A stretch of 64,000 nucleotides of DNA from Escherichia coli (GTDB lineage: Bacteria > Pseudomonadota > Gammaproteobacteria > Enterobacterales > Enterobacteriaceae). This document shows positions 20,632 to 20,841 of the stretch, one piece after another (position 1 is the stretch's first letter; each line of letters opens with the position of its first letter). Position numbers and translations under genes: made by a program. The notes beneath the pieces were generated by a model. It did not search any database and had not been told where the DNA came from. It saw only the letters and a list, made by a program, of their open reading frames with translations. The stretch lies in NCBI RefSeq assembly GCF_003018255.1, contig NZ_CP027440.1. The stretch is one strand, 5' to 3'.

Positions 20632-20710
20632 TTCGAACTCCTTAAATTTATTTGAAGGCAATAAAAAAGTAGGATTTATCCGCAATGGAAGCAAGGCATT
20701 ACAGGCTTAA

Positions 20711-20730
20711 TTTAAATAACAAAATCCTAA
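20711..20730 (-). promoter_or_regulatory. GAD box (GadE/RcsB binding site) upstream of gadA
   Basis: The minus-strand reading is TTAGGATTTTGTTATTTAAA, an exact match to the canonical 20-bp GAD box, about 80 bp upstream of the gadA ATG. Confidence 0.65.
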
Positions 20731-20841
20731 GCAGAAAAACGACCTTTTATAATATAAACATTTAATATGATAATATTAAAAACAGACTTTATTATCGTAA
20801 TAAAAATCGCCCAAACACTCCTGTTCGGGCGATCAAATTAA

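Follow-up and report, generated by a model that had tools for sequence, protein, structure and literature searches.

A canonical GAD box upstream of gadA and a second GadE site upstream of hdeD in Escherichia coli

The stretch of Escherichia coli DNA analysed here (64,000 nucleotides, hereafter the window) carries, according to the annotation of an identical genome, yhiD, hdeB, and hdeA on the minus strand, hdeD, gadE, mdtE, and mdtF on the plus strand, and gadW, gadX, gadA, and ccp on the minus strand. This order matches that of K-12 MG1655 and marks the locus as the E. coli acid fitness island. Several complete E. coli genomes, among them FDAARGOS_497, ST648, and ECONIH1, are 100% identical to positions 19200–21400, and a genome comparison made with this segment found the gadA region in 5,425 of 5,426 complete genomes. 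The annotation of the identical genomes places gadA, the regulated gene encoding glutamate decarboxylase A, at 19231–20631 on the minus strand (its ATG is read in the sequence at 20631), ccp at 20842–22239 (minus), hdeA at 9460–9792 (minus), and hdeD at 10047–10619 (plus). The gadA, hdeA, and hdeD gene calls made in a preliminary description of this DNA agree with these genomes and with K-12.

Two intergenic spacers concern us here. The gadA-ccp spacer (20632–20841, 210 bp), which is exactly the interval singled out in the preliminary description, is equal in length to its MG1655 counterpart and differs from it by four substitutions (20744, 20766, 20818, and 20820), all of which lie outside the boxes and core promoter elements described below. 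The hdeA-hdeD spacer (9793–10046; 254 bp, 33% GC) likewise has the MG1655 length, with three substitutions, none within the GAD-like box or the core promoter elements; within E. coli it was found in 5,413 of 5,426 genomes, and the full-length matches were all at least 95% identical. Elsewhere in the locus, heme uptake and utilisation genes (hutW, hutX, chuY, shuU, and an ABC ATPase, at ∼4200–8255) directly adjoin yhiD, where slp-dctR stand at the counterpart position in K-12; this difference places an inserted chu/shu locus inside the strain's acid fitness island. Immediately after gadE, an identical RefSeq genome annotates a 92-residue hypothetical protein on the opposite strand (∼11945–12223, minus); the matching stretch of K-12 holds the GadF small RNA (the gadE 3′ UTR) without such a gene, and the annotated gene is probably spurious.

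[quoted passage not shown] This is the single exact occurrence in the window, where matches with up to three mismatches are expected by chance only ∼0.01 times. Reading toward gadA, the box is followed after 16 bp by a −35 element (TTGCTT, 20689–20694, minus), which is conserved in gadB, and then by an RcsB box (GGATAAATCCTACT, 20668–20681, minus, ends approximate) abutting the −10 element (TACTTT, 20666–20671, minus), all three being read from the sequence. The gadA start site was back-calculated to ∼20658–20659 (minus) from a published chromatin immunoprecipitation (ChIP-exo) distance of −64 and a published box centre of −63. On this basis the GAD box spans about −52 to −71 with its centre at about −62 (−61.5 to −62.5), and its place ahead of the −35 element, its TTAGGA end being the one farther from the gene, is the canonical GAD-box placement. 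Further upstream, at about −120 from the start site, lies a GadX/GadW-type box (AAGTCTGTTTTTAATATTAT, 20770–20789, minus; a 17/20 match to the consensus quoted in PMC4918353), and a terminator scan located the intrinsic terminator of ccp, with a stem of 13 pairs and a run of T after it, at the ccp end of the spacer (20805–20834, minus).

This arrangement reproduces what is published for gadA. Castanie-Cornet et al. (2010; PMC2887963) described 16 bp between the GAD box and the −35 element, with the box centred 63 bp from the start site, and used a DNase footprint (−50 to −76), EMSA, and in vitro transcription to establish binding and activation by the RcsB/GadE heterodimer. In the same study a G-to-C point mutant of the box (M1) abolished both binding and activation, GadE by itself did not bind, and the RcsB box at the −10 element was a low-affinity site at which RcsB alone represses. 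When the gadA promoter of the window is aligned with the gadA and gadB promoters of K-12, the 20-bp box stands out as a perfectly conserved island (20/20) with diverged immediate flanks, and the RcsB box is conserved save for a G-to-C change at its left end, as PMC2887963 describes. The claim of an exact GAD box upstream of gadA is thus upheld by the unique exact match together with the footprint, EMSA, and mutant data. A GadE/RcsB heterodimer at 20711–20730, ∼1.5 helical turns upstream of the −35 element and with the GadX/GadW box further upstream, activates gadA; at high levels RcsB alone occupies the second box against the −10 element and represses.

The hdeA-hdeD spacer contains a GAD-like box, TTAGGAAATTTTTATTAAAT, on the plus strand at 9951–9970, identical in sequence in MG1655. 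Sequence comparison bears out the earlier count of 15 of 20 positions identical to the GAD box. The TTAGGA half-site and the downstream TTAT are intact, and the mismatches fall at positions 7, 8, 11, 17, and 20, which are variable in other GadE-bound sites as well. Downstream of the box we read an hdeD −10 element (TAGATT, 10000–10005, plus) within a block conserved across Escherichia, and the hdeD start site is placed at 10012 (plus) by back-calculation from the ChIP-exo distance of −54. The box therefore extends from −61 to −42 with its centre at −51.5, and its TTAGGA end is distal to hdeD, the same orientation as at gadA. With both start sites taken from published distances, the centre is exactly 10 bp closer than that of the gadA box, which is a variant rather than the canonical spacing. 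Counted from the hdeA start site (9843), the same box is inverted and has its centre at −117.5. A simple sigma-70 scan missed the true promoters of gadA, hdeA, and hdeD, whose −35 elements are poor and which rely on activators and RpoS, and the scan was not used for this geometry.

The number of matching positions, taken by itself, sets the hdeD box only marginally above chance, so its significance rests on which positions match, on matrix scores, on conservation, and on ChIP-exo. A Hamming scan of the whole window returned 10 matches of at least 14/20 to the GAD box, and four of at least 15/20 against ∼0.68 expected. The reading that takes 9951–9970 for an accidental similarity in an AT-rich promoter, with no regulatory role, can draw on these numbers: in a spacer of 33% GC, the probability of at least one 15/20 match is ∼0.03 under a Markov-1 model, and counts that equal or exceed it occur without other support at 285–304 (15/20, plus) and at 16729–16748 (16/20, minus) in the spacer between the convergent 3′ ends of mdtF and gadW. 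We attribute both of these to chance, as each has a low matrix score and no ChIP-exo peak.

A matrix treats the hdeD box very differently from these two. We aligned the best box-like 20-mers under eight GadE ChIP-exo peaks (gadA/B, hdeD, yhiM, gadE, micF, yjbQR, gltBD, and iraP), most of which consist of TTAGGA or a near variant, four A/T bases, and (G/T)TTAT. In a scan of the window, as the preliminary description had proposed, with a matrix built without the hdeD site, the hdeD box ranked second of 127,962 positions, at a score for which 0.09 sites are expected (Markov-1); the gadA box ranked first and a gadE-promoter site third, both of them members of the training set. A weaker matrix that left out both gadA and hdeD ranked gadA second and hdeD fourth, with 1.37 sites expected at the hdeD score.

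To relate these sites to occupancy in vivo, we took the K-12 GadE ChIP-exo peaks of Seo et al. (2015; PMC4918353), converted them from the older MG1655 coordinates, checked the conversion by the gadB and gadA peaks, which enclose their boxes, and mapped them onto the identical sequence of the window; start sites follow the published distance column. The gadA peak (P12, 20709–20737; signal-to-noise 1.5, distance −64) encloses the GAD box, and the 29-bp hdeD peak (P10, ACTGCAATTAGGAAATTTTTATTAAATCG, 9944–9972; signal-to-noise 41, distance −54) has the GAD-like box in its middle. The GadE enrichment that the preliminary description named as a check is therefore present at both boxes in K-12, to within a few base pairs. 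Its term “weaker” for the box at 9951–9970 is right for identity to the gadA box (15/20) but not for occupancy, where the signal-to-noise ratio is 41 at hdeD and 1.5 at gadA. Expression follows a similar pattern at both loci: RNA-seq of a gadE deletion against wild type gave log2 changes of −6.4 for gadA, −6.2 for hdeD, −6.3 for hdeA, and −7.4 for hdeB (PMC4918353). Our literature search for the GadE box or GadE binding sites returned only this ChIP-exo paper, and an hdeAB preprint (2026) gives no site coordinates.

The same data set identifies a third TTAGGA site, which the preliminary description did not list. This site, TTAGGACCAATATATGGAGT, lies in the gadE promoter at 11234–11253 (plus) and corresponds to peak P11 of gadE (signal-to-noise 13.5, distance −55), where the K-12 sequence is TTAGGATCAATATATGGAGT; a single T-to-C difference at box position 7 separates the two. 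Eight Escherichia lineages share its TAGGA core unchanged, and the site likely serves GadE autoregulation.

Conservation was examined by scanning species-representative genomes with a degenerate pattern for the HdeD N-terminus, which recovered E. albertii, E. whittamii, two further Escherichia species, two divergent E. coli-type genomes, and one contig labelled Flavobacterium. The last is an 8.6-kb contig (NZ_JAUFQN010000010.1, ∼2780–3100) assigned to Flavobacterium paronense CECT 8460, whose hdeA-hdeD region is nearly identical to that of E. coli K-12 and is probably assembly contamination. The nine aligned spacers include those of the window and of K-12. At the hdeD box, AATTAGGAAATTTTTATTAAATC is invariant in eight of the nine, and the ninth carries a single T-to-A change. 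The 27 bp immediately upstream (about 9922–9948) form the most variable stretch of the spacer; this hypervariable stretch separates two invariant regulatory blocks and looks like an unconstrained linker between a GadX/GadW box and the GAD-like box. Both GAD-type boxes are thus more constrained than neighbouring DNA, the gadA box by the comparison of gadA with gadB and the hdeD box across Escherichia. A conserved island beside a hypervariable block, a ChIP-exo peak of 29 bp centred on 9951–9970, and a second rank under a matrix that had not seen the site all argue against chance resemblance, which we consider extremely improbable and effectively refuted already. The box at 9951–9970 is a genuine GadE site serving hdeD.

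The preliminary description assigned the box to an hdeAB/hdeD promoter, and the assignment holds for hdeD, toward which the box is placed at −51.5 in the orientation seen at gadA; a role at hdeAB would have to be exercised from −117.5 and in the opposite orientation. ChIP-exo lists a separate GadE peak for hdeAB-yhiD (P9, 9818–9849; signal-to-noise 25.6, distance +9.5), whose sequence is matched exactly in the window within the hdeA 5′ leader. A search of P9 for a GAD-like motif found none, the best box match being 10/20. The listing of a separate, motif-less peak suggests that GadE control of hdeAB may not run through 9951–9970, and P9 itself may be a polymerase-bridged or looped crosslink.

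The hdeA side of the spacer has a strong candidate site of another kind. A GadX/GadW-type box (ATATCTGATTTTGATATTTT, 9887–9906, minus) matches the consensus ATGTCTGATTTTTATATTAT at 17 of 20 positions, with its centre at −53.5 relative to the start site of hdeA. Apart from this box, the window has just one further 17/20 match, the one upstream of gadA (20770–20789), where 0.00 are expected in all, so that each GAD-type box has a GadX/GadW box about 60 bp away. The hdeA box falls within the second block that is invariant across Escherichia. As for the GadX/GadW box upstream of gadA, GadX ChIP-exo rows at v2 3665727–3665768 in the supplementary table of PMC4918353 would map to ∼20755–20796, although in the text extracted from that table the gene labels of these rows are misaligned. 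A 14/20 match to the GAD box at 9898–9917 was considered as a GAD box for hdeA (−64.5) and rejected, since it has the wrong orientation and no GadE ChIP-exo peak; it is better explained by the GadX/GadW box that overlaps it, with 17/20 positions on the opposite strand.

Two accounts of hdeAB-yhiD can be given from these observations. In the first, 9951–9970 activates hdeD only, and the GadE dependence of hdeAB-yhiD comes from the motif-less P9 occupancy (∼+9.5), from the GadX/GadW box at −53.5, or from an indirect effect. This account is tenable but doubtful: the box is oriented toward hdeD, at a distance of 117.5 bp from the hdeA start site, for which a GadE peak of its own is listed and a strong GadX/GadW-type box is in place, yet deleting gadE lowers hdeA and hdeB no less than hdeD, P9 without a recognisable motif could be an RNA polymerase crosslink, and divergent promoters often share one activator site. 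In the second, a single RcsB/GadE complex at 9951–9970 would activate hdeD from −51.5 and, acting jointly with the GadX/GadW box that lies back to back with it (9887–9906), hdeAB-yhiD from −117.5. P9 would then reflect a contact made by looping or through the polymerase, and not a binding site of its own; we regard this account as rather unlikely. An action of the 9951–9970 box on hdeAB is nevertheless plausible, and the bound complex may help the divergent hdeAB-yhiD promoter in addition to the latter's own GadX/GadW box.

For hdeD itself, activation by a gadA-type mechanism is most likely. The box has the gadA orientation and is shifted toward the promoter by 10 bp, that is, by one helical turn, so that a bound complex would be expected to face the polymerase from the same side. 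The proposal of GadE-RcsB control at both loci stands for GadE at each of them, from ChIP-exo, and for RcsB directly at gadA only. [quoted passage not shown] GadE could instead bind there as a homodimer or paired with a protein other than RcsB, which would make 9951–9970 a GadE site but not a strict RcsB/GadE GAD box. PMC2887963 leaves open GadE regulation without RcsB at some targets and notes GadE homodimers, and the right half of the hdeD box differs from that of gadA at three positions. The RcsB-like TTAGGA half-site is, however, perfectly kept and invariant across species, and with the RcsB-P/GadE control reported in PMC2984483 we judge RcsB-free binding to be unlikely.

Taken together, sequence identity, position, conservation, and the overlapping footprints and ChIP-exo peaks in the literature identify the gadA box as the canonical GAD box, and make it highly probable that 9951–9970 is a second, genuine site of this type, which GadE occupies in vivo and which most likely activates hdeD. 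All of this is established E. coli biology and already known: the gadA GAD box is the type example, and published data already resolve GadE occupancy of the hdeA-hdeD spacer to nearly the base pair. The two boxes accordingly hold little discovery value. What the analysis adds is that a non-K-12 strain keeps the whole GadE/RcsB/GadX-GadW cis-regulatory layout intact, along with a methodological caution: the number of identities with the 20-bp consensus fails to tell real GadE sites from chance matches, whereas the TTAGGA-N4-(G/T)TTAT pattern, promoter position, and conservation do.

Compared with known systems, the site at 20711–20730 is the same element as the GAD box of gadA/gadBC (PMC2887963), with no base differing. 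The site at 9951–9970 corresponds to GadE ChIP-exo site P10 of K-12 MG1655 (PMC4918353, Supplementary Table 1), with an identical 20-bp box and one flanking substitution in 29 bp; it fits the pattern shared by the bound sites and differs from the gadA box in agreeing with it at 15 of 20 positions and in being centred at −51.5 rather than at about −62. Both boxes also recall the RcsB/RcsAB boxes, which are sites for response regulators of the NarL/FixJ type: the TTAGGA left half of each resembles an RcsB half-site, and the RcsB box at 20668–20681 ends in TCCTA. The right half of the GAD box, in contrast, is not an RcsB half-site, and the GadE partner is needed for binding. Finally, the GadX/GadW (AraC-type) boxes of the acid fitness island accompany each GAD-type box here as 17/20 matches, but they differ from the GAD box both in consensus and in the proteins that bind them.
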